Of a DNA stretch of 64,000 nucleotides, positions 26,258 through 62,580 are shown piece by piece. The DNA lies in contig OZ244201.1 of the NCBI GenBank assembly GCA_965216825.1, forward strand, positions 492,629-556,628, given 5' to 3'. This stretch comes from Parvibaculaceae bacterium. GTDB lineage: Bacteria > Pseudomonadota > Alphaproteobacteria > Parvibaculales > Parvibaculaceae. The notes beneath the pieces were generated by a model. The model worked only from the letters and a program-made list of their open reading frames with translations. It made no database searches and was not told where the DNA came from. The translations under genes were made by a program, and so were the position numbers. Position 1 is the first letter of the stretch; each line of letters begins with the position of its first letter.

Positions 26258-26830
26258 TCAGTAATAACGGACCGACATGACGATCGGCGCGCACCACTGT
26301 ACCCGGTCGACATAGCGGACATCCGCTTGCGGGCCGATGGGAACCAGGCCGTAACGCGGGCCGCTTTTCGGTCCGCGGATGAGGCGTCGGAGAAACAGCT
26401 TCCCCCCTTTCAGGCCGACGAAACAGTCCCGGTCGAGGGCTGCCGAAAGGTCGCCATCGTCCATCCGGTCCCCGATCAGGATATCGCCGGCGGCGTAGGC
26501 GCCGAGTGCCTGCTGGAGCCGTGCGGCGACCGGGCGGGCGGCGGGGACATGGAGCTTGAAGCCTGCGCTTTGGTGTATTTTCTGGTCAGTGACGGTTCCG
26601 TCCGCACCGATGCGCCCGAGCATTTCGATGCGCTCCGGTGACGGCTCGTCGATCAGGTCCGACATCTGAACCTGCAGGATTTCGGCAAGCGGTTCCAGCC
26701 AGTCGACCGACACCTTGATGCCCTCCGTTTCCAGCCGGGAAATAGTCGCAGCGGTCGTTCCGAGACTCTCGGCGAGGTCGGTCTGTGTCAGGCCCTTCAG
26801 CCGTCGGTAGTGGCGAATTCTGTTTCTCAC
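26258..26830 (-). CDS. XRE-family HTH regulator with a cI/LexA (S24)-like C-terminal domain
   Basis: N-terminal HTH IRHYRRLKGLTQTDLAESLGTTAATISRLETEG. The C-terminal part AGDILIGDRM..CFVGLKGGKLFLRRLI..LVPIGP resembles the S24 fold, but no G-S-M Ser motif is evident and Arg sits where the Lys is expected. Confidence 0.7.
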   Translation of the reverse strand: MRNRIRHYRRLKGLTQTDLAESLGTTAATISRLETEGIKVSVDWLEPLAEILQVQMSDLIDEPSPERIEMLGRIGADGTVTDQKIHQSAGFKLHVPAARPVAARLQQALGAYAAGDILIGDRMDDGDLSAALDRDCFVGLKGGKLFLRRLIRGPKSGPRYGLVPIGPQADVRYVDRVQWCAPIVMSVRYY

Positions 26831-26997
26831 GATCCTTGTCTCTCAATTGCATCGCTGCCGTGCAGTTTACGCCGGGGTCTCGAAAATATTACATAAAACG
26901 TAAATTTTATTCCCGGGGTTCTGCTTTGCGCTTATATGTAGGGTCTGTCCCAGATCGAAGGCTCGCGGCCGCAACCGAGGCCGCACAGGAGGTGAGA

Positions 26998-27441
26998 ATG
27001 CCCCAGATGTCCCAGATTTCCACGAACATGCCGGGTACGTATGCCTACAGGACGCCCCGGCAGGGTAGTTTGACCACAAAGGCGGCGGCGAAACGAGAGG
27101 CGATGCGTGCGCGCCAGGCCGCTGATGTGAAGCTCATCTGTAACGCCGTTGCCAGAGCTTACAACATTCCGGCCGATATGCTTCAGGCGCCGACCCGCGG
27201 CGAGGCACACGTTGCCCGCGCCCGGCAGGTCGCCATGTATCTGGCCCATGTGGCTTTCGGCATGAGCCTCGGGGCGGTGGGCCGCCAGTTCGACCGCGAC
27301 CGCACGACCGCAGCCTATGCCTGCCGCCAGATCGAGGATCTGCGGGACGAGGGCGGGTTCGATTTTCTTCTGGAACGGCTGGAAAGTGCCCTGTCCGCCC
27401 TCTACCGGGCACGGGCCGGCAGCCGCCCGGCACAGCGTTAG
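26998..27441 (+). CDS. DnaA-domain-IV-like HTH protein (GafY / GafA N-terminal-like candidate)
   Basis: TRGEAHVARARQVAMYLAHVAFGMSLGAVGRQFDRDRTTAAYACRQIEDLR matches the DnaA C-terminal DNA-binding motif (R..aRq.AMYL...S...IG..f.rdhtT). The ATG at 26998 follows AGGAGGTGA. Confidence 0.7.
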   Translation: MPQMSQISTNMPGTYAYRTPRQGSLTTKAAAKREAMRARQAADVKLICNAVARAYNIPADMLQAPTRGEAHVARARQVAMYLAHVAFGMSLGAVGRQFDRDRTTAAYACRQIEDLRDEGGFDFLLERLESALSALYRARAGSRPAQR

Positions 27442-27469
27442 AAGCGGAAAAGCCAGCAGGAGAGGGCGC

Positions 27470-28345
27470 ATGACGATTGCGGCAGGTGAATTGAGACGCG
27501 AAGGCATCCGGCTTTTTCGCCGCCTGAGAGAACCGGGATATTTCCTGCGGCCGTTGAGCGGGGAGCCCGAAAGCATAGGCCTGTTCGGCCCGCGCAACCG
27601 CTGGGCGCGGCCGGTGATGAAGCTGGACCGCACGATTGTCGAAGCGCTGCACCGGGCCGACCTGCTGGTGGAAACGGCTGCGCCGGACGCCGCTGGCGAG
27701 GAGGACGCCGTCCTGCAAGTGAGTGCCGCCGGCGAAGCATGGTGGCGGCGGCAGACCGGCGGACAGGAGGCGTTCCAGGCGCAGCACCGGCTCATGGGCC
27801 GCGCCACGATCGACGAACCGGGCCGCGGACCGGTGAGCCGCGAGGTGAACCTGGGCGAATCGCCGCTCGGCTGGCTCAGCCGCCGGAAGGGGCCGGACGG
27901 CCGGGCGTTTCTCACACCCGCCGAGGTCGAGGCAGGCGAGCGCCTGCGCCGGGATTTTACCCTGGGCCGGTTGAATGCGCGCGTCACGGCGGACTGGACC
28001 GGCATGATGGCACATGTCGACCGGAGCCGCGGCCTGCCGCGGGACGGGGCCGATGTTCCGGCAGCCGCTCTGGATGCGCGGCGCAGGACCGAAAACGCGC
28101 TCGCTGCGGTGGGGCCCGGACTGGGCGATATTCTCGTGGAAACCTGTTGCCACCTGACCGGCATCGAACAGGCCGAACGCGCATTGGGCTGGCCGCAACG
28201 CTCGGCGAAGATTGTTCTGAAAATCGCACTCGACCGGCTGGCCGGACATTACGGCCTGAAGCAGGGCGGGGCGCCGGGACGCAAGGTCCATGTCTGGCGG
28301 CGTGAGGGGGAGGGCGCGGACGGCGCTTCCGGTCAGTCCGTGTGA
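27470..28345 (+). CDS. DUF6456-like protein (GafZ / GafA C-terminal-like candidate)
   Basis: ESPLGWLSRRKGPDGRAFLTPAEVEAGERLRRDF motif and a C-terminal HTH-like segment (ERALGWPQRSAKIVLKIALDRLAGHYGL). The ATG at 27470 follows AGGAGAGGG, 28 nt after the upstream stop. Confidence 0.6.
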   Translation: MTIAAGELRREGIRLFRRLREPGYFLRPLSGEPESIGLFGPRNRWARPVMKLDRTIVEALHRADLLVETAAPDAAGEEDAVLQVSAAGEAWWRRQTGGQEAFQAQHRLMGRATIDEPGRGPVSREVNLGESPLGWLSRRKGPDGRAFLTPAEVEAGERLRRDFTLGRLNARVTADWTGMMAHVDRSRGLPRDGADVPAAALDARRRTENALAAVGPGLGDILVETCCHLTGIEQAERALGWPQRSAKIVLKIALDRLAGHYGLKQGGAPGRKVHVWRREGEGADGASGQSV

Positions 28346-28758
28346 GCGCCGGCAAGCTGCCGGGCGGCGTCCTCGCGGATCCGCGCCACCATGGCATGCA
28401 ATCCGTTTGAGCGTTGCGGGCTCAGATGTTCGTTGAGACCCAGTTGCTCGAACACGTCGCGTGCGTCGATATCCAAAATATCTTTCGGCGCCTTGCCGGA
28501 ATACATGGTGAGGAGAATGGCAATCAGCCCGCGCACGATCAGGGCGTCGCTGTCGCCGCGGAAAGAAAGTGTCCCGCCATCGCCGGCCGGTTCGCAGACC
28601 AGCCACACCTGCGAGACGCAGCCCTGCACCTTCGTCTCCTCATTGTGCTCGTCCGCACTCAGCGGATCGAGTTTCTTGCCCAGCTCGATGACATACTTGT
28701 ACCGGTCTTCCCAATCGTCGAGATAGCTGAAATCGTCTATCAGGTCCTGAATGCTCAT
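28333..28758 (-). CDS. sufE: SufE-like cysteine desulfuration (sulfur acceptor) protein
   Basis: WEDRYKYVIELGKKL..VQGCVSQVWL..GDSDALIVRGLIAIL..GLNEHLSPQRSNGL motifs. Confidence 0.85.
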   Translation of the reverse strand: MSIQDLIDDFSYLDDWEDRYKYVIELGKKLDPLSADEHNEETKVQGCVSQVWLVCEPAGDGGTLSFRGDSDALIVRGLIAILLTMYSGKAPKDILDIDARDVFEQLGLNEHLSPQRSNGLHAMVARIREDAARQLAGAHTD

Positions 28759-28975
28759 CTGGGGTCCGGCGTCGGTGAACGGGGGAGGGTTTCCCGTGAG
28801 ATAGCGCTCCAGAGGGCCCGGAGCAAGGCGTGTCACCAAAAAGTGGCCATTCGGGTAAAAAAAGGCGCACAGACAACCGGTTAAAGGGCACGGGAACCGG
28901 TCATCTGTGCGCCATCGTCGACGGGCACGCCCGTCTGGTGGAAGGCTGCGAACGAGCTAAAGCAGCATTCCAAAC

Positions 28976-51873: not shown

Positions 51874-51874
51874 A

Positions 51875-51889
51875 TTGCGGAAAATGCAA
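51875..51889. promoter_or_regulatory. inverted-repeat motif TTGCG-N5-TGCAA upstream of GTA g1
   Basis: Read from the sequence. It lies in a low-GC region between ycgN and g1 and is related to the second copy at 51997. Confidence 0.35.
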
Positions 51890-52011: not shown

Positions 52012-52074
52012 ATACTGATCTTGACATCGTAACGCCCGGTCCCATCTACTTAACCATCTCCGAAAGTATGCGCG

Positions 52075-52665
52075 ATGCAGAATGACGATCCCTCAAAGGG
52101 CCGGCCTCCTGATCGGTCTTGCGAAGACGCTTGCCTGACGCCGGAAGACTGGGACCGGATCGAACAGGCCTATCGGGGAAGCGAGCCGCTGGCGGACGTT
52201 GGCGCGCGGTACGGCATCACGATGCAGAAGATCGTGGCGCATGCCCGGCGCGAGGACTGGCCGCTCCGCGGCGCGCGGAAGACGAAAACCCTCCGCGGGG
52301 CCGGGCGTGCGCACAAGACGAAGCAGGCGAGTGCGGCCGCGCTCATGAAACGGCTCACCCGCCTTGTGGAACAACAGATCGACGACATTGAAAAACGGTT
52401 GAAGCGGAAGGCGGCATCGCAGGATCACGAACGGGATGCCCGCACACTCTCCAACCTGACCCGCACCCTCGACAAGCTGATCGAGCTGAAACGCACGGCC
52501 GACGCGGACAGGGCGGCGCGGGCCCGCGCGAAACGGGACGACAGGAAAGCCACAGGGAGCGACAGGGATGAAGACGCGCTCCGCGCCGAGCTGGCGGGCC
52601 GCCTGGCTCGCCTCGCAGCCGCCGGAAACCGTGACGGCGTTTCTGGACAGTCTGAACGAAACTGA
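52075..52665 (+). CDS. GTA g1-like protein (putative small terminase: HTH plus basic coiled coil)
   Basis: First gene of the cluster. N-terminal HTH-like LADVGARYGITMQKIVAHARREDW, then a Lys/Arg/Glu/Asp-rich helical tail. Confidence 0.6.
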   Translation: MQNDDPSKGRPPDRSCEDACLTPEDWDRIEQAYRGSEPLADVGARYGITMQKIVAHARREDWPLRGARKTKTLRGAGRAHKTKQASAAALMKRLTRLVEQQIDDIEKRLKRKAASQDHERDARTLSNLTRTLDKLIELKRTADADRAARARAKRDDRKATGSDRDEDALRAELAGRLARLAAAGNRDGVSGQSERN

Positions 52666-53872
52666 ACTTGGCTTTCTGAAGCACGACTGGCGCTTCTGGG
52701 CCCGGGCCCCGCAATGGCCGCCGGACGGCGACTGGACGACCTGGCTCATCCTGGGCGGGCGCGGCGCGGGCAAGACCCGCGCGGGCGCCGAATGGGTCCG
52801 CCGGCAGGTGCGCACGGGCAGGGCCGCGCATATCGCCCTTGTCGGCGAAGACTATGCGGATGCGCGTGAGGTCATGGTGGACGGGACGTCCGGTCTCGCC
52901 GCCCTCGGCCCGGCGGAGGAACGGCCCCGGTTCGAGCCGACGCGCCGGCGGCTCGTCTGGCCGAACGGGGCGGTTGCCACGCTCTTTTCCGCGAGCGATC
53001 CGGAAGCGCTGCGCGGTCCGCAATTCGATGCGGCCTGGTGCGACGAGGCGGGCAAGTGGCCGGACGCGGAAAGCGCCTGGGCCATGCTGCAATTCGGCCT
53101 GCGGCTGGGTGAACGGCCCCGTCAGGTGGTGACCACCACGCCGCGCGCCGTGCCCCTGGTCAGGAAACTGCTCGCGGACCGGCAGGTGAGGGTGAGCCGC
53201 ACGGCGACCTATGACAATCGCGCCAACCTGGCGGACGCGTTTTTCTCGACCGTCATCCGGACCTATGAAGGAACCCGGCTCGGGCGGCAGGAGCTGGACG
53301 GCGATCTTCTGGAAGACGATCCGGATGCGCTCTGGTCGCGCGCTATGATCGAACGCGCCCGCGTGCGGGTTGCGCCGGACTGTGTGCGTATTGTCGTCGG
53401 CGTGGACCCGCCGGCAAGTTCCGGCGGCAGCGCGGATGAATGCGGCATTGTCGCCGCGGGGGAGGGCGTTGACGGGCTCATCTATGTGCTGGCCGACCGC
53501 TCCCGCCCGCGCGCGAAACCGGCCGGCTGGGCCCGGCGCGTCGCGGCACTTTATGAACAGGTAAAGGCCGACCGTGTCGTTGCCGAGGTCAACCAGGGCG
53601 GCGAGATGGTCGCCAGCGTGCTTCACCAGGTGGCGCCTCACTTGCCGGTCCGGCAGGTGCGGGCCACGCGCTCGAAACGGGTGCGTGCCGAACCGGTCGC
53701 CGCCCTTTACGAGCAGGGCCGCGTCCGCCATGCGGGTCTGTTCGCGGAACTGGAAGACCAGATGTGCACGTTTACCGGCAAGGGCAAAAGCCCCGACCGG
53801 CTGGACGCGCTCGTCTGGGCGGTGAGCGACCTGATGCGCACCGCCGGCGACCCCGCCATCCGGCGGCTTTGA
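52568..53872 (+). CDS. GTA g2-like terminase large subunit
   Basis: WLILGGRGAGKTRAGAEWV (Walker A-like), IALVGEDYADAREVMV and a C-terminal nuclease part. Conserved residues begin close to the 52568 start, giving a 98-nt overlap with g1. Confidence 0.85.
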   Translation: MKTRSAPSWRAAWLASQPPETVTAFLDSLNETELGFLKHDWRFWARAPQWPPDGDWTTWLILGGRGAGKTRAGAEWVRRQVRTGRAAHIALVGEDYADAREVMVDGTSGLAALGPAEERPRFEPTRRRLVWPNGAVATLFSASDPEALRGPQFDAAWCDEAGKWPDAESAWAMLQFGLRLGERPRQVVTTTPRAVPLVRKLLADRQVRVSRTATYDNRANLADAFFSTVIRTYEGTRLGRQELDGDLLEDDPDALWSRAMIERARVRVAPDCVRIVVGVDPPASSGGSADECGIVAAGEGVDGLIYVLADRSRPRAKPAGWARRVAALYEQVKADRVVAEVNQGGEMVASVLHQVAPHLPVRQVRATRSKRVRAEPVAALYEQGRVRHAGLFAELEDQMCTFTGKGKSPDRLDALVWAVSDLMRTAGDPAIRRL

Positions 53873-53905
53873 CGCGGCCACGACATAACCGAAACGGGAA
53901 CCCGA

Positions 53906-55087
53906 ATGACCGAACAGCCAAACCTGTTGCGGCGCCTTTTCGGCGCGCGTGCCCCGCTGGAAGAAAAGGCAAGCGCCGCGCGCTCGCTGATCGCGCTCTC
54001 GACGCTGGGCCGGCCGGTCTGGACGCCCCGCGATTACGACCGGCTGGCGCGCGAAGCCTATGAACAGAACGCGGTCGCCTTCCGCTGTGTGCGCATGATC
54101 GCGGAAGCCGCGGCCAGTGTGCCGTGGCTGCTTTATGAAGGCGGCCGCGAGCATGACCGGCATCCGCTGCTCTCGCTCCTTGCCCGGCCGAATCCGGTGG
54201 AAGGCGGCGCGGACCTGATGGAAGCCTGGTACGGCTACCTGCAGGTGGCGGGCAATGCCTATCTCGAAGCGGTGCAGGTAGGCGGCGAGGTGCGCGAGCT
54301 TTATGCGCTCCGGCCCGACCGGATGAAAGTGGTGCCGGGTGCGCGCGGCTGGCCGGAGGCGTACGAATATGCGGTGAACGGGCGCACGCTCGTTTTCCGG
54401 GAGGAACCCGACCGGCCGATCCTGCACATGAAGGCCTTCCACCCGACGGACGATCATTACGGCCTGTCGCCGCTGGAAGCCGCCGCCCGTGCGGTGGACA
54501 TTCACAATGCCGCGGGCGCCTGGAACAAGGCCCTGCTCGACAATGCGGCCCGGCCGTCCGGCGCGCTTGTCTACAAGGGGCAGGACGGGGCGGGCACGCT
54601 CACCGAAGACCAGTTCGACCGCCTGAAGCGGGAACTGGAGGAGAATTATTCCGGCTCGGCCAATGCGGGCCGTCCGCTCTTGCTCGAAGGCGGGCTGGAC
54701 TGGCAGCAGATGGGACTGGGGCCGCGCGATCTCGACTTCAACGAGGCGAAGAACGCGGCGGCCCGCGACATCGCTCTGGCCTTCGGCGTGCCGCCCATGC
54801 TGCTCGGCATTCCGGGCGACAACACGTTTTCGAATTACAGGGAAGCGAACCTTGTCTTCTGGCGCCAGACGGTCGTGCCGCTGGTGCGCAAGACAGCGAC
54901 GGCGCTCACCCGCTGGCTTGGGCCCCGCTTCGGGCAGGACCTGATCCTCGGCGTGGATCTCGACGGCGTCCCCGCCCTCGGGGCGGAGCGCGATGGTCTC
55001 TGGGCGCGGGTAAGGGACGCGGACTTTCTCACCGACGACGAGAAACGCGCGGCGGTCGGCTATGGCCGGAGAGAGGGTGGGACATGA
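53906..55087 (+). CDS. GTA g3-like portal protein (HK97 family)
   Basis: 393 aa with AFRCVRMIAEAAASVPW..LLARPNP..YLQVAGNAYLE..LSPLEAA portal motifs. Confidence 0.9.
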   Translation: MTEQPNLLRRLFGARAPLEEKASAARSLIALSTLGRPVWTPRDYDRLAREAYEQNAVAFRCVRMIAEAAASVPWLLYEGGREHDRHPLLSLLARPNPVEGGADLMEAWYGYLQVAGNAYLEAVQVGGEVRELYALRPDRMKVVPGARGWPEAYEYAVNGRTLVFREEPDRPILHMKAFHPTDDHYGLSPLEAAARAVDIHNAAGAWNKALLDNAARPSGALVYKGQDGAGTLTEDQFDRLKRELEENYSGSANAGRPLLLEGGLDWQQMGLGPRDLDFNEAKNAAARDIALAFGVPPMLLGIPGDNTFSNYREANLVFWRQTVVPLVRKTATALTRWLGPRFGQDLILGVDLDGVPALGAERDGLWARVRDADFLTDDEKRAAVGYGRREGGT

Positions 55088-55347
55088 GCGGCCCGGAACC
55101 GGAAACCCGCTGGCATCTGGACAAGCGGGTGCCCATCGCGCTGATCGTGGCGATCCTCATCCAGACGGCGGGCGCACTCACCTGGGCGGGCGCGGCGTCG
55201 GAACGGATCAACCAGCTGGAGCGCCAGGTGACCGGCGGCAGCGACCTGGGCGAACGCACGGCCCGCCTCGAAGTGCAGGCGGTCTATATGCGCGCCGCCC
55301 TCGACCGGATTGAAGACAAGCTCGACCGTGCCATCGCGCGGGAGTGA
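55084..55347 (+). CDS. GTA g3.5-like small membrane protein
   Basis: 87 aa with one TM helix (VPIALIVAILIQTAGALTWAG) and a coiled-coil tail. It has a 4-nt overlap with the portal gene stop. Confidence 0.65.
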   Translation: MSGPEPETRWHLDKRVPIALIVAILIQTAGALTWAGAASERINQLERQVTGGSDLGERTARLEVQAVYMRAALDRIEDKLDRAIARE

Positions 55348-55367
55348 TCGACACTCTTTAACACAAT

Positions 55368-55459
55368 CGTCATTGCCGGGCTTGTCCCGGCAATCCAGGG
55401 CAACAGGCGGAAGCCTGAGCGCGTAGCCTCTGGACCCCCGGAACAAGTCCGGGGGTGAC
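55368..55459. repeat. pair of inverted REP-like hairpin elements (GTCA-stem-CTTGT-stem-TCC family)
   Basis: Hairpin 1 is ATTGCCGGG-CTTGT-CCCGGCAAT (55372..55394). Hairpin 2 is CCCCCGGA-ACAAG-TCCGGGGG (55435..55455) in opposite orientation. The flanks GTCA/TGAC and TCC/GGA mirror each other. Confidence 0.6.
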
Positions 55460-55484
55460 ACCCACCAATTGGAACAAAACCCGT

Positions 55485-56207
55485 ATGAATGAACGATGGA
55501 CTCCTCCGCCCCTCTTTGGGGAGCGGAAAGCGCACCCCCATGCCCGCGAAACCAAGCGTGCCGCCTTCGATATTGCCCATGTCGACGACACGGGCGCGTT
55601 CGAAGGCTATGCCAGCCTCTTCGGCGCGGAGGATCTGGGTCACGACCTGGTGCTGCGCGGCGCCTTCGAGGCGAGCCTGGCCAAGCGCGGCGCGTCCGGC
55701 GTGCGGATGCTCTTCCAGCACGATCCGGCCGACCCGATCGGCGCGTGGGATGAAATCCGCGAGGACGAGGAAGGTCTTTATGTCCGGGGCCGCCTGACGC
55801 TCGACGTCGGCCGCGCCCGCGAAATCCACGCCCTGATGAAAGCAGGCGCGCTGGACGGGCTTTCCATCGGCTTCCACACCGTCAAGGCCGTGCGTGACCG
55901 TCTCACCGGTATCCGTCAGCTCATCGAAATCGATCTCTGGGAAATTTCCGTGGTCACGTTTCCGATGCAGCCCGGTGCCCGCGTGCGCGCGGTCAAGACG
56001 GTCCCGCCCTTTTCGAGACTTCCGACGGAACGGGATCTCGAACGCCGGCTCCTGCGGGATGCAGGACTGAGCCGGCACCAGGCCCGCGCGCTGATTGCGG
56101 GCGGTTACAAGGCGCTGTCAGGCCCGCGGGACGCGGGCGGTGCCGGCCCCGATCTGGCGCATCTCGCCCGGACCATCCGGTCCGCCGGCGCGCGCTTTCT
56201 TTTCTGA
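55485..56207 (+). CDS. GTA g4-like prohead protease (HK97 / S78 family)
   Basis: GAFEGYASLFGAEDLGHDLVLRGAF..RMLFQHD..LSIGF..EISVVTFPMQ motifs. The start (55485 ATG or 55455 GTG) is uncertain. Confidence 0.85.
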   Translation: MNERWTPPPLFGERKAHPHARETKRAAFDIAHVDDTGAFEGYASLFGAEDLGHDLVLRGAFEASLAKRGASGVRMLFQHDPADPIGAWDEIREDEEGLYVRGRLTLDVGRAREIHALMKAGALDGLSIGFHTVKAVRDRLTGIRQLIEIDLWEISVVTFPMQPGARVRAVKTVPPFSRLPTERDLERRLLRDAGLSRHQARALIAGGYKALSGPRDAGGAGPDLAHLARTIRSAGARFLF

Positions 56208-56241
56208 CCCCGACCTTCGACGTCAACCCAAGGAGACCAGC

Positions 56242-57558
56242 ATGCCTCTCATCCGAGAGAACGAACCCGGCCGCGTGGGCCATTCCATGCGCGGCACGGC
56301 GCCCGCCCCGGGACTGGAACGCAAGAGTGCCGAGCAGGGCGCGTCCGCCGTGCGCGACGTACGCCAGGCCTTCGACGAATTCATGACCCGCTTCGATGCC
56401 TTCAAGCAGGCGAACGACGACCGCCTTGCACAGGTCGAGCGGAAACTGTCCGCCGATGTCGTGACGGTGGAAAAGGTCGACCGGCTGAATGCCGCCCTCG
56501 ACCTCCAGCAGAAGACCGTCGACGGTCTGGCCCTGTCGCTCAGCCGCCCGGAACTCGGGGGATCGCCGTCTGTCGATCCGCAGGCCCGCGAACACAAGTC
56601 CGCGTTCGACCGGTATGTGCGGCGGGGCGAGATCGCCACGTTGCGCGCGCTGGAAGAAAAGGCGCTGGCGGTGCAGTCAGACCCGGACGGCGGCTATCTC
56701 GTGCCCGCCGAGACGGAACGGCTGATCGACCGGACGGTCTCGGAAGCCTCGCCCATCCGCGCCATCGCCGGTGTCCGCCAGATCGGCGCGGCGTCCTACA
56801 AGAAACCGTTCGCCACGGCGGGCGCGGCAACCGGCTGGGTCGGCGAGACCGAACCGCGCACCGAAACGGACAGCCCGAAGATCGCCGAGCTCGAATTCCC
56901 GGTGATGGAGCTTTACGCCATGCCGGCAGCGACCTCGACCCTGCTCGACGATGCCGCGGTCAATATCGACCAGTGGATCGCGGAAGAAGTGCAGACCGCC
57001 TTTGCCGAACAGGAAGGCGCCGCCTTCGTGCAGGGCGACGGCGTGCGCAAGCCGCGCGGCTTTCTCTCCTACCCGGCGATTGGCAACGCCTCCTGGGTGT
57101 GGGGCAAGCTCGGTTATGTCGCGACCGGCGAGGCGGGGGCCTTTCCCGCGACCGCACCCTCCGACGTGCTGCTCGACCTCGTCTACTCGGTGAAGTCCGG
57201 CTACCGCGCCAACGCGCATTTCGTCATGAACCGGCAGACGCAGGCGCAGATCCGCAAGTTCAAGGATGCCGACGGCAATTACCTCTGGCAGCCGAGCCTC
57301 ACCGCGGGCGACGCACCGCGTCTCATGAACGTGCCGGTTGCCGAGGCCGAAGACATGCCGGATGTGGCCGCCGACAGTTTTGCCATTGCGTACGGCGACT
57401 TCCGGCGCGGGTACCTGATCGTCGACCGGCTGGGCATCCGCGTGCTGCGCGATCCCTACACCGCGAAACCCTACGTCCTGTTCTACACGACCAAGCGTGT
57501 GGGCGGCGGCGTTCAGAACTTCGAAGCGATCAAGCTTCTGAAATTCGGCACGGCTTAA
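56242..57558 (+). CDS. GTA g5-like major capsid protein (HK97 fold)
   Basis: An N-terminal delta-domain-like coiled coil precedes DPDGGYLVP..ELEFPVMELYA..KPRGFL..NYLWQPS motifs. The ATG at 56242 follows AAGGAGA. Confidence 0.9.
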   Translation: MPLIRENEPGRVGHSMRGTAPAPGLERKSAEQGASAVRDVRQAFDEFMTRFDAFKQANDDRLAQVERKLSADVVTVEKVDRLNAALDLQQKTVDGLALSLSRPELGGSPSVDPQAREHKSAFDRYVRRGEIATLRALEEKALAVQSDPDGGYLVPAETERLIDRTVSEASPIRAIAGVRQIGAASYKKPFATAGAATGWVGETEPRTETDSPKIAELEFPVMELYAMPAATSTLLDDAAVNIDQWIAEEVQTAFAEQEGAAFVQGDGVRKPRGFLSYPAIGNASWVWGKLGYVATGEAGAFPATAPSDVLLDLVYSVKSGYRANAHFVMNRQTQAQIRKFKDADGNYLWQPSLTAGDAPRLMNVPVAEAEDMPDVAADSFAIAYGDFRRGYLIVDRLGIRVLRDPYTAKPYVLFYTTKRVGGGVQNFEAIKLLKFGTA

Positions 57559-57568
57559 GGAGGGCCTC

Positions 57569-57997
57569 ATGCGCGATCTTCATTCATCCCTGGGTCTCGT
57601 GCAGACCCTCGATCCGGCTGTGACCAGCGCGACACGGGCCGGTGCGCCCGTCGACCGCCAGGGCTACGAGAGCGTCGAACATGTCGTGCTCGTCGGCACC
57701 AGCGGCGACACGCTCTCCGGCAGCGTCTCGATCACCCTGCAGCTCGACGAAAGCGAGGACGGCGCGGTCTGGGCGCCGGTGGTCGACGACAGCCATGTGC
57801 TGGGCGCCTCGGTCGACATGACCGGCGCCTTCGCCCTTATCGACGACGTGGCGGAAGACGGCATGGCCTACTCGGTCGGCTATGTGGGCGACGCCCGCTA
57901 TTCCCGCGTGCAGGCGGTGCTGACCGGCACCCACACGAACGGAACGCCGCTCGGCGCGATTGCGCTTCTGGGCCACGGCCACGTGAAACCGGCCTGA
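57569..57997 (+). CDS. hypothetical GTA-cluster protein with no RcGTA counterpart (candidate head decoration/accessory protein)
   Basis: 142 aa. The ATG at 57569 lies 6 nt after AGGAGG and 10 nt after the capsid stop. Acidic Gly/Val/Asp/Ser-rich composition with no TM segment. Confidence 0.6.
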   Translation: MRDLHSSLGLVQTLDPAVTSATRAGAPVDRQGYESVEHVVLVGTSGDTLSGSVSITLQLDESEDGAVWAPVVDDSHVLGASVDMTGAFALIDDVAEDGMAYSVGYVGDARYSRVQAVLTGTHTNGTPLGAIALLGHGHVKPA

Positions 57998-58007
57998 TGG
58001 GCCTGTC

Positions 58008-58048
58008 CGGGACGGAGGGCCTGCCTCTCCGTCCCGCTCTTTCTTTTC
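58008..58048 (+). terminator. intrinsic-terminator-like hairpin inside the GTA cluster
   Basis: Stem CGGGACGGAG/CTCCGTCCCG (10 bp, extendable by G-C and G-U pairs) followed by the T-rich CTCTTTCTTTTC. It sits in the 64-nt gap before g6. Confidence 0.5.
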
Positions 58049-58061
58049 AAGGCGGAACCCA

Positions 58062-58616
58062 ATGACGCTCACCCTCATGACAGGGCCGGCCAGTGAACCG
58101 GTCGACCTCGCCGACATGAAGCTCCATCTGCGGGTCGACACGGCGGACGAGGACGCCCTGATCTCCGGCCTCATCGCGGCGGCCCGGCTCACGGTCGAAG
58201 CCCATGCTTCGCTCGCGCTTCTGACGCAGAGCTGGCGCTGGACGCTGGATCGCTGGCCCGGCGGGGCGCTGGACCTGCCTTTGGGCCCGGTCGTCTCGGT
58301 CGATCAGGCAAGCGTCGACGGAACTCTTCTTTCCCCCGATGCCTATCAGCTTGTGCCGGGCGGGCAAGCGCGCCTGCTCCGGGCCGACAGCACGGCATGG
58401 CCCGCGCCATCCGCTGCCGCAGGCGGCATCGTCATTGAGTTTACCGCGGGCTTCGGGCTCGACGGCGTCGCCGTCCCGCGCGATCTGCGCCACGCGATCA
58501 TGATGCTGGTGGCCCACTGGTTCGAGAACCGCGAACCCGCCGCCGGGTTCGATGAGGAGCGCCTGCCGCGCGCGGTGCGTGCGCTTCTCGCCCCTTACTG
58601 GAGGCACCGGCTGTGA
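58062..58616 (+). CDS. GTA g6-like head-tail connector (phage gp6-like)
   Basis: EPVDLADMKLHLRVDTADEDALISGLIAAARLTVE..LRHAIMMLVAHWFENRE motifs. Confidence 0.85.
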   Translation: MTLTLMTGPASEPVDLADMKLHLRVDTADEDALISGLIAAARLTVEAHASLALLTQSWRWTLDRWPGGALDLPLGPVVSVDQASVDGTLLSPDAYQLVPGGQARLLRADSTAWPAPSAAAGGIVIEFTAGFGLDGVAVPRDLRHAIMMLVAHWFENREPAAGFDEERLPRAVRALLAPYWRHRL

Positions 58617-58933
58617 TCGGCGGGTTGCGGCATCGCCTGGTGCTCGAGGCACCGGTCCGCACGCCGGATGGCGGCGGCGGCGCGCAGCTAAGCTGGCAGA
58701 CCGTCGCAACGCTCTGGGCCTCCCTCGACATGCCATCGGGTGCGGAACGTGACCGTGGCGACCGGACGGAAGCCCTGCGGCAGGTCCGCATCCGGCTCCG
58801 ATACCGGAGCGGCGTCACGCCGGCGCACCGGTTCCGGAAGGGCGCGCGGGTCTTTGCCATTCGCGCCGTGCTCGACGAAACGGGCACCGGCCGCTGGCTC
58901 ACCTGTCTCTGCGATGAAGGAGGCGGGACATGA
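58613..58933 (+). CDS. GTA g7-like head-tail adaptor / head closure protein
   Basis: LRHRLVLEAPVRTPDGGGG..WASLDMPSGAERDRGDR.. pattern. It has a 4-nt overlap with g6. Confidence 0.8.
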   Translation: MIGGLRHRLVLEAPVRTPDGGGGAQLSWQTVATLWASLDMPSGAERDRGDRTEALRQVRIRLRYRSGVTPAHRFRKGARVFAIRAVLDETGTGRWLTCLCDEGGGT

Positions 58934-59340
58934 CCCTTGCTGCGAGCTGGGCCCTTCAGCAGGCCGTGCATGCGGCGCTCGTCGGCGATGCGGCCCTTTC
59001 CGCGCTGGTGGGCGGGCGCATTTACGACCGCCCGCCGGACGATGTCGCCTTTCCCTATGTGACGCTCGGCGACACGGAGGTTCTGGCCGCGGGCACCGGC
59101 AGCGCCGATGCCGCCCGGCACCGGCTGGACCTTGCCGTCTGGTCGCGGGCTAAGGGCCGTCGGGAGGCGAAGGAAGTCATGAGCGCGGTTCACGCCGTTT
59201 TGCACGAGGCGGCGTGGCCACTCTCCGGCCATGTGCTGGTCGATTGCCGCTTTGAACGCGCCTCTCTTTCCTATGCCGCAGAGGCCGATGCGCTTCGCGG
59301 TCTCATGCGCTTTCGCGCTTACACCGAAACGCCGGCGTGA
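58930..59340 (+). CDS. GTA g8-like DUF3168 tail terminator protein
   Basis: LQQAVHAALVGDAALSALVGGRIYDRPPDDVAFPYVTLGD motif. Confidence 0.8.
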   Translation: MTLAASWALQQAVHAALVGDAALSALVGGRIYDRPPDDVAFPYVTLGDTEVLAAGTGSADAARHRLDLAVWSRAKGRREAKEVMSAVHAVLHEAAWPLSGHVLVDCRFERASLSYAAEADALRGLMRFRAYTETPA

Positions 59341-59380
59341 GGCCGGCACACCATGATCTCCAACCGGGAGGAACCCCGAT

Positions 59381-59794
59381 ATGACCGCACAGCGCGGCAA
59401 GGACATGCTCTTGAAGGTCGACAGCGACGGCCTGGGAAGTTTTACGACGGTGGCGGGCCTGCGCGCCCGCGCCCTCGCGTTCAATGCACGCACCGTCGAT
59501 GTGACCCACGCGGAGTCGGCGGGCGCCTGGCGCGAGCTTCTCGCCGGGACGGGTGTGAAGTCCGCCAGCCTGACGGGCAGCGGTCTCTTCCGCGACGAAG
59601 CGTCGGACGCGACCATCCGTTTGCTCTTCTTCGATGGCACGGTGCGCACCTGGCAGGTGGTCATTCCGGGCTTCGGCACGGTGGAAGGCGCGTTCCAGAT
59701 CACCGCCCTTGAATATGCCGGGACGCATGAAGACGAGCTGCGCTTCGACATTGCGCTGGAATCTGCCGGTGCCCTCTCGTTCACGGGGGCCTGA
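59381..59794 (+). CDS. GTA g9-like major tail protein (TP901-1 family)
   Basis: GKDMLLKVDSDGLGSFTTVAGLRARALAFNARTVDVT..SGLF motifs. Confidence 0.85.
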   Translation: MTAQRGKDMLLKVDSDGLGSFTTVAGLRARALAFNARTVDVTHAESAGAWRELLAGTGVKSASLTGSGLFRDEASDATIRLLFFDGTVRTWQVVIPGFGTVEGAFQITALEYAGTHEDELRFDIALESAGALSFTGA

Positions 59795-59795
59795 C

Positions 59796-60176
59796 ATGGC
59801 AAACCGGCACCGGGGCGAAGTAACGCTCAAGGCAAACGGCAGAACCTACACACTGTGTCTCACGCTTGGCGCGCTGGCCGAACTGGAGGACCGGTATGGC
59901 GGCGAGGATATTCTCTCGCTCGCCGAACGATTTTCCTCCGGCCGCCTGACGAGTGCCGACGCGCGCAATCTTCTCTCCGCTGCGCTGAAGGGGGGCGGCG
60001 AGGAGGTGGAGATGCTTGACCCCGGCACGATGGTGTTCGAGGGCGGCATGGCCGGTCTCATCCGCACACTGGCGGAGCTTCTCGCCGTCACGTTCGGCCT
60101 CGCGGCGGAAGCGGATCGGCCAATGGATAAGGAGGAACCGCAGGACCCTGTCCCTTTCCCTGGGACGCGCTCATGA
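59796..60176 (+). CDS. GTA g10-like tail assembly chaperone-type protein
   Basis: HRGEVTLKANGRTYTLCLTLGALAELEDRYG pattern typical of the gene transfer agent family protein. Confidence 0.8.
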   Translation: MANRHRGEVTLKANGRTYTLCLTLGALAELEDRYGGEDILSLAERFSSGRLTSADARNLLSAALKGGGEEVEMLDPGTMVFEGGMAGLIRTLAELLAVTFGLAAEADRPMDKEEPQDPVPFPGTRS

Positions 60177-60349
60177 GTTTCGTCTTCGGCCGCCTCAACT
60201 GGCCGCCGGGCCGGGCATGGGCCGCAAGCCTGCCGGAGATCGAGGCGGCGGCGCGCCTCTTTGTGGAGACCGGCGCAGAGGGGCTTCCGCGCACCGCCTT
60301 GCAGGACCTGATGGACGCCTATCCCGACAGGATGGGTGTGCCACGCTAA
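60173..60349 (+). CDS. GTA g10.1-like small protein (58 aa)
   Basis: Below the ORF-track size cutoff. Manual translation gives MSFVFGRLNWPPGRAWAASLPEIEAAARLF..LQDLMDAYPDR. It has an ATGA overlap with the g10 stop. Confidence 0.65.
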   Translation: MSFVFGRLNWPPGRAWAASLPEIEAAARLFVETGAEGLPRTALQDLMDAYPDRMGVPR

Positions 60350-60361
60350 CAGGAACACGAT

Positions 60362-61015
60362 ATGGAATTTGACGATCAGCCGCTGGCGCCCGTCAGTGAG
60401 AGTGTGAGCGACCTCCGCCGCGCGTTCGACGAGGCCGCCCGCGCAAGCAGCACGCTTGGACGCGATGCACGGCAGGCCCTCTCCGGCATCCGCACGGAAG
60501 GCGGCCGCGCGGCTGCAACCGGCCGCGATCTCGGACGCGTCCTGACCGGCGCCTTCGCCGACATGGTGAAGGGCGGCAAGTCGCTGCAGGACGTCTTGCG
60601 GTCCGTCGCCGTCGACCTGGCGAAGCTTGCCGCGGAAGATCTTTTCGGCAGTGGCAGGCCGGGCGGCATAAGCGGCGGTGGCCTGTTGAACAGCCTCCTC
60701 ACCACCAGCGCGGCCGGCAACGTGATGCAGTCGGGCCGCGTCCGCGCCTTCGCCAAGGGCGGGGTGCTCTCCGAACCGGCGCTCTTTCCGATGCGAAACG
60801 GCATGGGGCTAGCGGGCGAAGCGGGTGCGGAAGCGATCCTGCCGCTCGCGCGCGGCGCCGACGGACGGCTCGGCGTGACCGCTGCCAACGAGGCGCGGCC
60901 GTTGAATATCGTCTTCAACGTGAACGCCAGCGATGCGGCGAGTTTCCGGCGCAGCGAAAGCCAGATCGCCGCCATGCTTCAGCGCACCGTCACGCGCGGC
61001 ACACGCAATCTCTGA
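60362..61015 (+). CDS. GTA g11-like short tape measure protein
   Basis: Helical N-terminal part, then FAKGGVLSEPALFPMRNGMGLAGEAGAEAILPLARGADGRLGV, the conserved TMP C-terminal motif. Confidence 0.85.
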   Translation: MEFDDQPLAPVSESVSDLRRAFDEAARASSTLGRDARQALSGIRTEGGRAAATGRDLGRVLTGAFADMVKGGKSLQDVLRSVAVDLAKLAAEDLFGSGRPGGISGGGLLNSLLTTSAAGNVMQSGRVRAFAKGGVLSEPALFPMRNGMGLAGEAGAEAILPLARGADGRLGVTAANEARPLNIVFNVNASDAASFRRSESQIAAMLQRTVTRGTRNL

Positions 61016-61046
61016 TCCGGGGAGCCCCGGTCTTGAAGGAACGACC

Positions 61047-61685
61047 ATGACGTTTCACGACATCCGGTTTCCCCTCGACATTTCGCTGAGCGCGTCCGGC
61101 GGGCCGGAACGGCGCACCGAGATCGTGACGCTGGGCTCGGGCCGCGAGGAGCGCAACACGCCGTGGGCGGATGCCCGGCGCCGCTACAATGCGGGCTACG
61201 GCGTGAAAAGCCTTGCCGATCTTCACACCGTGATCGGGTTCTTCGAGGCGCGGCAGGGCCGTCTCTACGGCTTCCGCTGGAAGGACCGGATGGATCATTC
61301 CTCGGTGCTGCCGGGTGTTGCGCCTGGACCGCTCGACCAGCTCCTCGGCGCGGGCGACGGCGCAACGGACACGTTCCAGCTGACCCGGACCTATGCATCC
61401 GGTCCCGCCACATATGTGCGGGACATTACGAAACCGGTGGCGGGTTCTGTCCGGGTGGCCATCGATGGGGTGGAGCAGACGGAAGGCGTTCACTTCACCG
61501 TCGGCACGACCACCGGTCAGGTCACCTTCCTGCCGGGCCATGAACCGGCACCCGGCGCGGCCGTGACCGCGGGCTTCGAGTTCGACGTGCCGGTCCGCTT
61601 CGACACCGATTTTCTGGACGTGAACCTGAGCGCCTTCGATGCGGGCGACATTCCGCACATCCCGCTCATCGAAATTCGCGAGTAG
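61047..61685 (+). CDS. GTA g12-like DUF2460 distal tail protein
   Basis: MTFHDIRFPLDISLSASGGPERRTEIVTLGSGREERN..RRRYNAGYGVKS motifs. Confidence 0.9.
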   Translation: MTFHDIRFPLDISLSASGGPERRTEIVTLGSGREERNTPWADARRRYNAGYGVKSLADLHTVIGFFEARQGRLYGFRWKDRMDHSSVLPGVAPGPLDQLLGAGDGATDTFQLTRTYASGPATYVRDITKPVAGSVRVAIDGVEQTEGVHFTVGTTTGQVTFLPGHEPAPGAAVTAGFEFDVPVRFDTDFLDVNLSAFDAGDIPHIPLIEIRE

Positions 61686-61692
61686 GCCGCCC

Positions 61693-62580
61693 ATGAAAAC
61701 CCTTTCCCCGGCTTTGCAGGCGCACCTGGAAAGCGGCACCACCACGCTTTGCCATTGCTGGCGGCTCGAGAGGCGGGACGGAACCGTGTTCGGGTTCACC
61801 GACCATGACCGCACGCTCGCCTTCGGCGGCACGACATACGAAGCGGCGGCGGGCTTCACCGCGAGTGCGGTGACCGCCTCGACCGGTCTCGCCGTCGACA
61901 ATCTTGACGTCATGGGGGCGCTCGCCTCCGACACGCTGACGGATGCGGACCTTGCCGCCGGCCTGTTCGACGATGCGGTGATCGAGATCTGGCGGGTGAA
62001 CTGGCAGGCGCCCAGCGACCGGGTCTTGCTCAGGAAGGGCAATCTCGGCGAGGTGAGCCACGGCAGCCGGGGCTTTACCGCCGAAGTGCGCGGCCTTGCC
62101 CACCGGCTCAACCAGCCGACGGGCCGTCTTTATCAGTATGCCTGCGATGCGGACCTGGGCGATGCGCGCTGCGGCATCGACCTTCAGTCGCCAGCCTTCA
62201 GGGGAACCGGAACGGTGGCAGCCATGTTCGACAACAGGGTCGTTGACGTGACAGGGCTCGATGGCTTCGCCGACGGCTGGTTTGCCCGCGGTCTCCTGAC
62301 CTTCACAAGCGGCGTCAATGCAGGCGAGGTGCTGGAAGTGAAAGCACATGACAGCATGGCGGGCACCGTGTCGCTTAAGCTTTGGCATCCGCCGGTCAAA
62401 GACATCGAAGCGGGTGACGCCTTCACCGTGACCGCGGGGTGCGACAAGCAACTGGCCACCTGCCGTACCCGGTTCGCGAATGCTGACCGGTTCCGCGGCT
62501 TTCCGCACATGCCGGGCAACGACTTTGCGCTTTCCTATCCCGTGCGCGGACGCGGCAATGACGGAGGCAGCCGGAATTGA
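61693..62580 (+). CDS. GTA g13-like DUF2163 / BR0599-domain baseplate hub protein
   Basis: LQAHLESGTTTLCHCWRLERRDGTVFGFTDHD..CDADLGDARCG..GFPHMPGND motifs. Confidence 0.9.
   Translation: MKTLSPALQAHLESGTTTLCHCWRLERRDGTVFGFTDHDRTLAFGGTTYEAAAGFTASAVTASTGLAVDNLDVMGALASDTLTDADLAAGLFDDAVIEIWRVNWQAPSDRVLLRKGNLGEVSHGSRGFTAEVRGLAHRLNQPTGRLYQYACDADLGDARCGIDLQSPAFRGTGTVAAMFDNRVVDVTGLDGFADGWFARGLLTFTSGVNAGEVLEVKAHDSMAGTVSLKLWHPPVKDIEAGDAFTVTAGCDKQLATCRTRFANADRFRGFPHMPGNDFALSYPVRGRGNDGGSRN

Follow-up and report, generated by a model that had tools for sequence, protein, structure and literature searches.

Two adjacent genes of a Parvibaculaceae MAG, ORF1 and ORF2, most likely constitute a two-gene form of GafA, the activator of RcGTA-like agents, acting by a mechanism of the Caulobacter type; as an explanation of the whole locus, we give this a probability of roughly 0.85. 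Within the 64-kb stretch of DNA analyzed here (the window), the genes code for a DnaA-domain-IV-type protein and a DUF6456 protein of the GafA family, lie in a conserved neighborhood, and have cis-elements in common with the promoter of an RcGTA-type structural cluster. Work in Caulobacter and Rhodobacter suggests by analogy that the pair is an activator, that its products form a GafY-GafZ complex, and that they bring about anti-termination; our mechanistic template is that of Gozzi et al. 2022 (PMC9632790) and Tran & Le 2024.

Organization of the gene pair

The preliminary description reported two co-directional genes 28 nt apart, each with a strong ribosome-binding site, and both the coordinates (Table 1) and the Shine-Dalgarno sequences agree with this. 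The plus-strand ORFs are separated by positions 27442-27469, with AGGAGG (26987-26992) lying 5 nt before the ATG of ORF1 and AGGAGAGGG (27458-27466) 3 nt before that of ORF2. The peptide motifs quoted for a 147-aa protein with a DnaA-domain-IV-type HTH and a 291-aa protein with DUF6456 are present in the translations, which match PF08299 and PF20057, respectively. The GTA structural cluster had been placed about 24 kb away, at 52 to 64 kb, and the ORF2 stop lies 23.7 kb from the ATG of g1.

Table 1. Coordinates of the genes and candidate control elements in the window
Feature	Position	Strand	Remarks
XRE189, XRE-type HTH and lambda-cI/LexA-like (S24-fold) C-terminal domain	26258..26830	-	Divergent from gafY
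15-bp near-palindrome TTACATAAAACGTAA, candidate operator	26889..26903		XRE189-gafY intergenic region, centered at about -49 from the predicted gafYZ start
TATATG, -10-like hexamer of the predicted gafYZ promoter	26933..26938	+	Conserved block YTATATGTA
gafY-like gene ORF1	26998..27441	+	ATG 26998, stop 27441, 147 aa; DnaA-domain-IV-type HTH (HdaB/GafY family)
gafZ-like gene ORF2	27470..28345	+	ATG 27470, 291 aa; N-terminal winged-helix-like domain, DUF6456, putative sigma-region-4-like C-terminal HTH
sufE, convergent	28333..28839	-	PF02657, E 3.7e-48; synteny marker downstream of Hyphomicrobiales-type gafA loci
Distal palindrome copy TTGCGGAAAATGCAA	51875..51889		GTA upstream region, within the first (51872-51950) of two promoter modules in tandem
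Proximal palindrome copy TTGCAAAAAATGCAA	51997..52011		9 nt before the GTA promoter -35 hexamer
Predicted GTA core promoter	52021..52061	+	TTGACA 52021-52026, 17-nt spacer, ATCTAC 52044-52049, CCATCTCC 52054-52061
RcGTA-type head-tail cluster, g1 onwards, presumed target operon	52075..64000	+	Cut by the window end
Strong intrinsic-terminator-like hairpin	58008..58046	+	12-bp stem with 9 G-C pairs, then T-tract

Homology to the GafA family

ORF1 covers the full Bac_DnaA_C profile (PF08299) with residues 45-112 (E 1.2e-17) and matches DnaA domain IV among PDB sequences (1j1v, E 5e-8). It is a short, stand-alone DnaA-domain-IV protein of an alphaproteobacterium, as are proteins of the HdaB type, and the HdaB family is the GafY family. 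By BLASTP it matches the N-terminus of the fused GafA-type protein P0105 of Rhodobacterales (E 1e-5, P0105 residues 28-80), and an hhalign comparison between 39 GafY-like proteins and the N-terminal parts of 29 fused GafA proteins gives a probability of 98.3% (E 1.8e-14), with the match spanning ORF1 residues 74-135. ORF2 matches DUF6456 (PF20057, E 1.4e-51, residues 125-262), a domain tied to GafA in the literature (Sherlock & Fogg 2022, PMC9638019; Kogay et al. 2022, PMC9765227), and aligns with residues 111-378 of P0105 at 43% identity (E 2e-59). In the 316-aa phrog_31864, likewise, the N-terminal part matches ORF1 and the C-terminal part ORF2.

Comparison with the GafA orthologue of Rhodobacter viridis bore out one half of the pair: over the last 165 aa, ORF2 and this orthologue share 48% identity (E 2e-41), but the pairwise comparison of ORF1 with the N-terminus of that protein is not significant (E 0.44). 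The R. viridis protein matches the published numbering of R. capsulatus GafA at L34, S43, I45, L46, R50, R51, and Q54, and the link from our pair to the characterized CCNA_01111, CCNA_01112, and rcc01865 runs via this congeneric orthologue, primer-derived terminal peptides, and the literature. Judged by sequence, the comparisons support homology of both halves to the GafA/GafYZ family and their collinearity, in the right order, with the halves of fused GafA, and the kinship with GafA, GafY, and GafZ put forward earlier holds to this extent.

The AF2 model of ORF2 is confident (mean pLDDT, 84.7), and its residues 198-260 are predicted to form a four-helix bundle. Local Foldseek comparison with PDB pairs the model with ECF sigma region 4 (3vfz; TM 0.87, rmsd 1.4 Å, 61 columns), and the local matches to SigD region 4 have TM values of 0.77-0.87 but E values of 0.8-1.2. 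Full-length Foldseek of the model against PDB returned nothing significant, only the local sigma-4 and winged-helix matches, and a PDB sequence search with ORF2 up to an E of 10 gave no matches and no solved GafZ or GafA structure.

Synteny and previously described loci

Among 80 related loci, 38 are split in the same gafY-gafZ order and about 36 are fused, and 14 of the 80 have the full four-gene synteny of HTH regulator, DnaA-like gene, DUF6456 gene, and sufE. The sufE gene is downstream and convergent at 28 of the 38 split loci, and the order, orientation, and spacing (22-24 kb) of gafYZ and the GTA cluster are the same in two other genomes. Published surveys found 759 GafZ homologues, 494 of them with an adjacent GafY, and more split than fused pairs (Gozzi et al. 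2022), and gafA in 196 of 208 GTA-bearing genomes (Kogay et al. 2022).

The regulatory wiring had been presumed undescribed, which overstated its novelty, as a split gafA preceded by a gene for an HTH (or mucR) regulator and followed by sufE is already published for Hyphomicrobiales (Sherlock & Fogg 2022). The window has the same components, including the small DnaA-like gene and the 22-32 kDa DUF6456 gene, and the pair is thus another instance of a described arrangement, neighbors included, and not a new system. It differs from the Hyphomicrobiales-type loci in its host, a Parvibaculaceae MAG, and we type the upstream regulator as cI/LexA-like and give a candidate operator for it, neither of which is known from that paper. 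The locus adds Parvibaculaceae, known here from a MAG only, to the many Alphaproteobacteria with a split GafY/GafZ by sufE; the picture is conceptually unchanged, and the value lies in the by-products on DNA control sites described below.

A divergent candidate repressor and a shared palindrome

XRE189 matches HTH_3/HTH_31 in Pfam with its N-terminus only; the C-terminal domain has no Pfam match up to an E of 10, and its S24-like fold is apparent only from structure prediction. The best PDB matches of the AF2 model (pLDDT 84) are to lambda repressor (3bdn/7jvt, E 1e-6) and to the C-terminal domains of cI (2ho0, TM 0.65) and of M. tuberculosis LexA (6a2q, TM 0.66), a likeness to both regulators. 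In the family alignment, 'LRRL' takes the place of 'FKKL' of cI and the Ser is missing at the 'GNSM' position, leaving no Ser/Lys dyad. Of the 38 split-pair loci, 15 have a homologue in the same divergent position. XRE189 is a candidate repressor of the gafYZ pair.

The palindrome in the XRE189-gafY intergenic region is kept at the aligned position in loci L001, L002, L088, and L089 (TTGCGTAAAACGCAA and similar), and the YTATATGTA block is common to the window, L001, L088, and L089. Upstream of gafY, a palindrome of this type is present at 9 of the 15 loci where an XRE189 homologue is adjacent, compared with 0 of 21 where it is not (Fisher p 5e-5). The pattern TTRCRTAAAAYGYAA, which was built from gafY promoters only and searched with at most one mismatch, matches the 64 kb at three sites (26889, 51875, and 51997) against 0.00 expected, the latter two being in the GTA upstream region. 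The GTA promoters of L082 and L084 have it at the corresponding position, and two more genomes (L082/L088 and L084/L089) carry the palindrome in both the gafYZ and GTA promoters; the L002/L081 genome has it at gafYZ and lacks it at its own GTA promoter.

RogA of C. crescentus (CCNA_00080) is described by Gozzi et al. 2022 as having an N-terminal HTH and a C-terminal domain of the S24 fold from which the catalytic Ser/Lys are missing, and XRE189 resembles it in these respects. The RogA peptide LSHGEIW (from a published primer) is missing from XRE189. The candidate XRE189 operator, TTRC-N7-GYAA, differs from the RogA operator GGAA-N4-TTCC, which is not present in 26831-26997, and rogA is distant from the pair in Caulobacter, whereas the XRE189 gene is adjacent and divergent.

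A DnaA-box-like element upstream of gafY

The heptamer TATCC(C/A)C is found in 24 of the 38 split gafY upstream regions (p 2e-24), and also in the mapped Caulobacter YBE (the GafY site) and in three Parvibaculum-type GTA promoters. As a family feature this box is a proposal of the present analysis and not an established criterion; Gozzi et al. 2022 and Tran & Le 2024 found no GafY motif to be derivable. The box is missing from the gafYZ and GTA promoters of the window and of its closest relatives, and the recognition helix of GafY in this clade has a Tyr where DnaA and most GafY proteins carry a His. Because of these two features, the DNA target of GafY in the clade may differ from the usual one.

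Sequence-defined operators are still missing for GTA regulation, and several of these patterns are directly testable: the enrichment of TATCCCC upstream of split gafY genes, where it coincides with the only mapped GafY site; the co-occurrence of a cI-like neighbor with its candidate operator; and a clade, the window included, in which the box is absent, the recognition helix altered, and a repressor-type operator spread to the GTA promoter. If these are confirmed, GTA regulons would become predictable from sequence.

The GTA cluster and its promoter

The cluster runs from large terminase through portal, S78 prohead protease, capsid, tail tube, and hub protein to NlpC/P60, with Pfam matches to Terminase_6N/6C, Phage_portal, Peptidase_S78, Phage_capsid, Phage_tail_2, Gp84_N/BR0599, and NlpC/P60; a search for g1 relatives among viral contigs found none. 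The core-promoter architecture is kept in eight GTA promoters, the -10 resembles the mapped -10 of Caulobacter PgtaT, TATCTTT, and CCATCTCC is a second -10-like element at about +1. A ZBE-like palindrome is not evident between the -35 and -10. There is no terminator after the first GTA gene because g1 overlaps the terminase gene. The internal hairpin, which sits in the 64-nt gap between the ORFs at 57569-57997 and 58062-58616, is a candidate terminator that anti-termination would need to overcome.

Comparison with known regulators

The pair resembles C. crescentus GafY (CCNA_01111, HdaB) and GafZ (CCNA_01112) in being adjacent and co-directional, the short DnaA-domain-IV protein coming first and the DUF6456-type protein, with its putative sigma-like HTH, second, in having an RcGTA-like cluster in the genome, and in the link between control of the pair and a cI/LexA-like regulator without catalytic residues. 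A published primer implies the C-terminal peptide RHYRMA for Caulobacter GafZ, in agreement with the H260-Y261 motif that is invariant in the ORF2 family. However, the gafY stop and gafZ start overlap in Caulobacter (TAATG), whereas in the window ORF2 stands apart with its own ribosome-binding site, and the window has neither a TATCCCC-type GafY box nor a ZBE-like palindrome that we could see. The -35 of the GTA promoter is consensus in the window but degenerate in Caulobacter, where a terminator directly follows the first gene, unlike in the window.

R. capsulatus GafA (rcc01865) and the fused Rhodobacterales homologues form a single polypeptide with an N-terminal DnaA-like HTH, a central region, and a C-terminal DUF6456 with a sigma-like HTH, and ORF1 and ORF2 together are collinear with it; in the window they are split into two genes, and the synteny differs. 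The ORF1 HTH (DRTTAAYACRQIEDLRDE; DHTTVLHACRKIEQLREE in E. coli) resembles true DnaA domain IV far more closely than the GafA N-terminus does. In R. capsulatus, the central region of GafA binds RNAP omega, a feature of GafA. Lambda Q and AlpA-type anti-terminators, which load at a promoter and then read through terminators, are an analogy drawn by Tran & Le 2024, and CCATCTCC, which recurs across the set of GTA promoters studied, is similar to the sigma-dependent pause sites used by Q proteins; these proteins have no sequence or fold similarity to ORF2, and this is analogy and not family membership.

Proposed mechanism and alternative explanations

We suggest that the pair is normally off, most probably through the non-cleavable cI/LexA-like XRE189 acting at the palindrome at 26889-26903. 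Once expressed, the GafY homologue would bind GTA-related promoters and aid initiation by sigma-70 RNA polymerase at about 52021-52061, and the GafZ homologue would load at the GTA promoter via its putative sigma-region-4-like HTH and render the polymerase termination resistant. Transcription could then extend over the 12 kb of the cluster, past the hairpin at 58008-58036. The binding events, the activation, and the protein that binds the palindrome are all what we infer.

A further, tentative possibility is a double lock in this clade, with XRE189 acting on both the activator and GTA promoters via the one operator TTRC-N7-GYAA, the specificity of GafY having changed (His to Tyr, with loss of the ancestral TATCCCC), and the switch being rewired relative to Caulobacter; a corollary would be that TATCC(C/A)C is a general, hitherto undefined GafY box across Alphaproteobacteria, a re-use of the DnaA box. 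The palindrome could instead be the site of the Tyr-variant GafY, mediating auto-activation and GTA activation, with XRE189 acting elsewhere or only on its own promoter. We regard this as possible but doubtful. In Caulobacter, the protein that occupies the gafYZ promoter as well as the GTA promoter is GafY and not the repressor RogA; the palindrome is at alike positions in the two promoters here (about -49 and -52), which suits an activator too; and the box is lost and the recognition helix changed in this clade. However, the palindrome tracks the adjacent XRE189, including at loci with a His-type GafY that keep TATCCCC, and the L002/L081 genome has it at gafYZ and not at the GTA promoter. A dyad of 15 bp is also better matched to a dimeric cI-like protein than to DnaA domain IV, which recognizes asymmetric 9-mers as a monomer.

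The activator role itself has to be weighed against other functions of the pair. ORF1 shares its short DnaA-domain-IV family with CCNA_01111, first described as HdaB (PMC7049699), and might chiefly modulate replication, titrating HdaA and so blocking RIDA as cells leave stationary phase, instead of being a GTA transcription factor. We think this improbable: the HdaB phenotypes have been re-read as consequences of GTA induction, with ChIP-seq placing GafY at GTA promoters (Gozzi et al. 2022), and ORF1 is operonic with a DUF6456 gene to which it is fused in Rhodobacterales, which points to one joint function. It is similarly unlikely, if a shade less so, that the pair has other targets or is a relic and that the GTA cluster is driven independently by its consensus -35 promoter under direct repression. 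The perfect TTGACA at 52021, the two repressor-type operators upstream of the cluster, and the finding in Caulobacter that a promoter with a consensus -35 no longer depends on GafYZ would fit such an arrangement. Both genes, however, are intact, have good ribosome-binding sites, and retain 56-67% identity and the same synteny throughout the clade; the -10 (ATCTAC) is poor, and the internal terminator-like hairpin still calls for read-through. Least credible by far is that the two are genes of a prophage or phage remnant and serve as its late-gene regulator. DUF6456 proteins do occur in phages, that of Roseobacter phage RDJL Phi 1 being the best BFVD match of the ORF2 model (E 7.7e-9), and phrog_31864 matches both ORFs, but the flanks are housekeeping genes (sufE, DUF5330, and a gene for a conserved protein of 646 aa), synteny of the locus extends across families and orders, neither an integrase nor phage genes are close by, and the sole match in a 'phage' record (MW462191.1) has the same bacterial synteny with sufE. 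On this synteny, we reject a prophage origin of the locus.

Other sequence elements

Rfam and tRNA scans of the whole window returned no matches. CtrA boxes (TTAA-N7-TTAA) are found upstream of gafY at 0 of 38 loci, and the search for a LexA box in the window yielded just a degenerate half-match, GTTCTGCTTTGCGCT, at 26918-26932. An 8-mer shared by the two upstream regions, AATTGCAT (26845 and 51941), is unconvincing alone: the window has four copies where 1.4 would be expected, and 6 of 100 shuffles equaled this. We note that this 8-mer recurs in the GTA promoter of L083.

A probable split GafY/GafZ-type activator pair

The positions, shared orientation, 28-nt gap and ribosome binding sites given for the two genes in the preliminary description are all reproduced in the window, with AGGAGG lying 5 nt 5' of the ATG of ORF1 (gafY-like) and AGGAGAGGG 3 nt 5' of that of ORF2 (gafZ-like). 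The domains it named are equally clear: ORF1, described as carrying a DnaA-domain-IV-type helix-turn-helix (HTH), covers the Bac_DnaA_C profile in full (E 1.2e-17) and is matched by solved DnaA domain IV structures (1j1v, E 5e-8), and ORF2 matches DUF6456 (E 1.4e-51). The AF2 model of ORF2 (pLDDT 84.7) has a winged-helix-like N-terminal domain and a C-terminal four-helix unit; ECF sigma region 4 gives local matches to it (TM <=0.87, rmsd 1.4 A) with a whole-chain E-value that is not significant. Among viral structures, the DUF6456 protein of Roseobacter phage RDJL Phi 1 matches the model best.

Features of the activator and GTA regions, in window positions
Feature	Positions	Strand	Details
646-aa ORF	24020-25960	+	Upstream of repressor gene; no Pfam match
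Palindrome copy, one mismatch	26242-26256		ATACGCAAAACGCAA, just beyond repressor gene stop codon
XRE189 gene	26258-26830	-	189 aa, divergent from gafY; XRE HTH and C-terminal domain
Palindrome, gafY promoter	26889-26903		TTACATAAAACGTAA
LexA-box counterpart	26918-26932		Degenerate copy only, GTTCTGCTTTGCGCT
ORF1	26998-27441	+	147 aa; Pfam Bac_DnaA_C
GafY recognition helix	27290-27320	+	RDRTTAAYAC, ORF1 residues ~100-110
ORF2	27470-28345	+	291 aa; DUF6456
sufE	28333-28839	-	Convergent with ORF2
Promoter modules, GTA	51872-51950, 51994-52072		Tandem duplication, 122-bp period
Palindromes, GTA promoter	51875-51889, 51997-52011
-35 element, GTA promoter	52021		Perfect TTGACA
-10-like CATCTA and second -10-like	52042-52061		CCATCTCC[R]GAA, 5-7 nt past CATCTA
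RcGTA-type head-tail cluster	From 52075	+	Large terminase, portal, S78 protease, capsid, tail tube, hub, NlpC/P60 peptidase
Intrinsic-terminator-like hairpin	58008-58046	+	Strong; 12-bp stem, then T-tract; inside GTA cluster

Fused Rhodobacterales proteins of ~380 aa are collinear with ORF1 plus ORF2; in P0105 (Limibaculum), the GafA-type protein used for comparison, residues 28-80 correspond to ORF1 residues 75-131 (E 1e-5) and residues 111-378 to ORF2 residues 7-263 (43% identity, E 2e-59). A genome scan for relatives returned 80 loci, including a Rhodobacter viridis protein (start MKTMHAS...) whose L34, S43, I45, L46, R50, R51, and Q54 fit the published residue numbering of R. capsulatus GafA (Sherlock & Fogg 2022, PMC9638019). 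The last 165 residues of this protein are 48% identical to ORF2 (E 2e-41); pairwise, its N-terminus and ORF1 show no significant similarity (E 0.44), and profile-profile comparison of 39 stand-alone GafY-like proteins with 29 fused N-termini gives 98.3% probability (E 1.8e-14, ORF1 residues 74-135). The R. viridis, P0105, and profile matches support the proposed GafY/GafZ-type (split GafA) identity. One PHROG family (316 aa) matches ORF1 at its N-terminus and ORF2 at its C-terminus. Likeness to C. crescentus GafY/GafZ comes from indirect comparison, a verified 23-mer of the Caulobacter promoter having 0 matches in the genome scan.

The gene order (XRE-HTH gene, ORF1, ORF2, sufE) is that of the split gafA loci of Hyphomicrobiales, in which a small DnaA-like gene precedes a gene for a 22-32 kDa DUF6456 protein, with sufE downstream and a regulator annotated mucR or HTH upstream (Sherlock & Fogg 2022, PMC9638019). 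Among 1,331 alphaproteobacterial genomes, 494 of 759 GafZ homologues have an adjacent GafY, and fused GafYZ proteins are rarer than split pairs (Gozzi et al. 2022, PMC9632790); gafA is present in 196/208 GTA-bearing genomes (Kogay et al. 2022). Our 80 loci comprise 38 split and ~36 fused forms, with full four-gene synteny in 14. The pair is thus a further member of the known split GafY/GafZ-type activators, and there is little new in the pair itself; the regulatory wiring, previously thought undescribed, is so for this lineage only, the arrangement being known from both 2022 studies (Sherlock & Fogg; Gozzi et al.). The 3' ends of ORF2 and sufE overlap by 13 nt (28333-28345), leaving no space for a terminator between them. 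We note that a 103-kb freshwater GenBank record labelled 'Bacteriophage sp.' (MW462191.1) carries the bacterial synteny at 73124-79663 (transcriptional regulator, DnaA-like DNA-binding protein, DUF6456 protein, and SufE). The record probably represents a bacterial contig that was mis-binned, or else bacterial DNA called as viral.

GTA cluster and promoter

The structural cluster, said to lie about 24 kb downstream of the pair, is a genuine RcGTA-type cluster whose start is 23.7 kb beyond the stop codon of ORF2. gafYZ and the cluster share an orientation and are separated by 22-24 kb in three genomes that represent different genera or families (the window, 28345 to 52568; NVWR01000004.1, L002/L081; and WGND01000004.1, L003/L083). 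Upstream of the cluster, these genomes also conserve the order penicillin-binding protein (-), CxxCxxCC protein (+), g1 (the first GTA gene).

We consider it likely, at a probability of about 0.85, that ORF1 and ORF2 form the master activator of the GTA and act after the Caulobacter model, every binding and activity step of which we infer. The GafY-like protein would assist initiation, and the GafZ-like protein would load at the promoter and give read-through, which would have to pass the hairpin, a plausible obstacle that lies downstream of the capsid gene and is separated from it by one further gene. What we observe directly is the identity of the genes, their homology and synteny, the presence of a target, and the elements shared. 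Several features depart from the Caulobacter template: the consensus -35 of the window GTA promoter does not fit, there is no ZBE-like dyad (GafZ-type binding element) between its -35 and -10, and no terminator directly follows g1.

Upstream of the GTA cluster, an entire promoter module is duplicated in tandem; the module contains the palindrome described below, a -35-like element, a -10-like element, and CCATCTCC. In the proximal copy, the palindrome lies 9 nt upstream of TTGACA, ATCTAC, which resembles the mapped Caulobacter -10 (TATCTTT), is found 17 nt past it, and the second -10-like element comes next, at ~+1. This core architecture is kept in 7/7 relatives' GTA promoters (L081-L087), reached via terminase homologues. 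L082 and L086 also have second promoter modules, and the second -10-like element stands at aligned positions throughout L081-L087; speculatively, it is reminiscent of sigma-dependent pause sites for loading lambda-Q-type anti-terminators.

A candidate operator and its proposed regulator

When the intergenic regions between the regulator gene and gafY are aligned across relatives, a 15-bp near-palindrome stands out as conserved; in L001 and L002 (related gafY loci) it reads TTGCGTAAAACGCAA or TTGCATAAAATGCAA. The pattern TTRCRTAAAAYGYAA (<=1 mismatch), derived from gafY promoters alone, occurs at only 3 sites in the 64-kb window (expected 0.00), namely its own site and two in the GTA upstream region. 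L082 and L084 carry the palindrome at the same place of the GTA promoter, and it is also present in the gafY promoters of these two genomes (L088 and L089).

Where an XRE189 homologue is adjacent, a palindrome of this type lies 5' of gafY in 9/15 loci; where none is, in 0/21 (Fisher p 5e-5). This co-occurrence points to the cI-like XRE189 protein as candidate binder; binding of the palindrome by GafY is the less likely alternative. With XRE189 as binder, we hypothesize that in this clade the activator promoter and the GTA promoter would both be contacted by the repressor. Caulobacter RogA, the gafYZ repressor, is bound at the gafYZ promoter only. These operator candidates and the apparent rewiring, both hypotheses, are what lift interest beyond the pair.

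A Pfam search of the XRE189 C-terminal domain gave no match, and the nearest structures to the AF2 model (pLDDT 84) are full-length lambda repressor (3bdn and 7jvt, E 1e-6), with the C-terminal domains of cI and LexA matching at TM 0.65-0.66. The family alignment has no Ser at the cI nucleophile position and Arg (LRRL) at the place of the cI Lys (FKKL). XRE189 shares the published architecture of RogA (Gozzi et al. 2022, PMC9632790) but lacks the primer-deduced RogA peptide, and the XRE189-gafY intergenic region has no RogA operator (GGAA-N4-TTCC). In L088 and L089, a 648-aa counterpart of the 646-aa ORF occupies the corresponding site upstream of the repressor gene.

DnaA-box-like elements and GafY specificity

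TATCCCC, one mismatch away from the DnaA box TTATCCACA, is found within 360 bp upstream of 24/38 split gafY genes (4.0% of background windows; p 2e-24), the enriched form in the split gafY upstream regions among L003-L080 being TATCCCC(G/A). It adjoins the -35 in three Parvibaculum-type GTA promoters (L083 2015-2023, L086, and L087). The sole experimentally mapped GafY site, Caulobacter PgtaT (GTA promoter) -123 to -113, is ACTATGGGGAT; its other strand, ATCCCCATAGT, coincides with this box, as does CTATCCACA, which primer sequences place immediately upstream of the IHF site in the Caulobacter gafYZ promoter. Both Caulobacter papers (Gozzi et al. 2022; Tran & Le 2024) report that a GafY motif could not be derived, and we found no description of TATCCCC, here a candidate general GafY box, in the literature consulted.

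The box is absent from the window and its closest relatives. Most GafY proteins have the recognition helix RDRTTAAHAC, whose His corresponds to His439 of E. coli DnaA, whereas Tyr replaces it in the window, L001, L002, L088, and L089; Tyr-variant loci lack the box. The His-box association has a Fisher p of 0.03 (0.002 with the window, L088, and L089), ignoring kinship of loci. Loss of the box together with the His-to-Tyr change suggests that GafY specificity may have changed in this clade.

In L003 (~4530), L004, L005, L030, and L045, the stretch separating the palindrome from gafY contains LexA boxes of the canonical alphaproteobacterial type (GTTC-N7-GTTC), which suggests SOS control of gafYZ in these loci.
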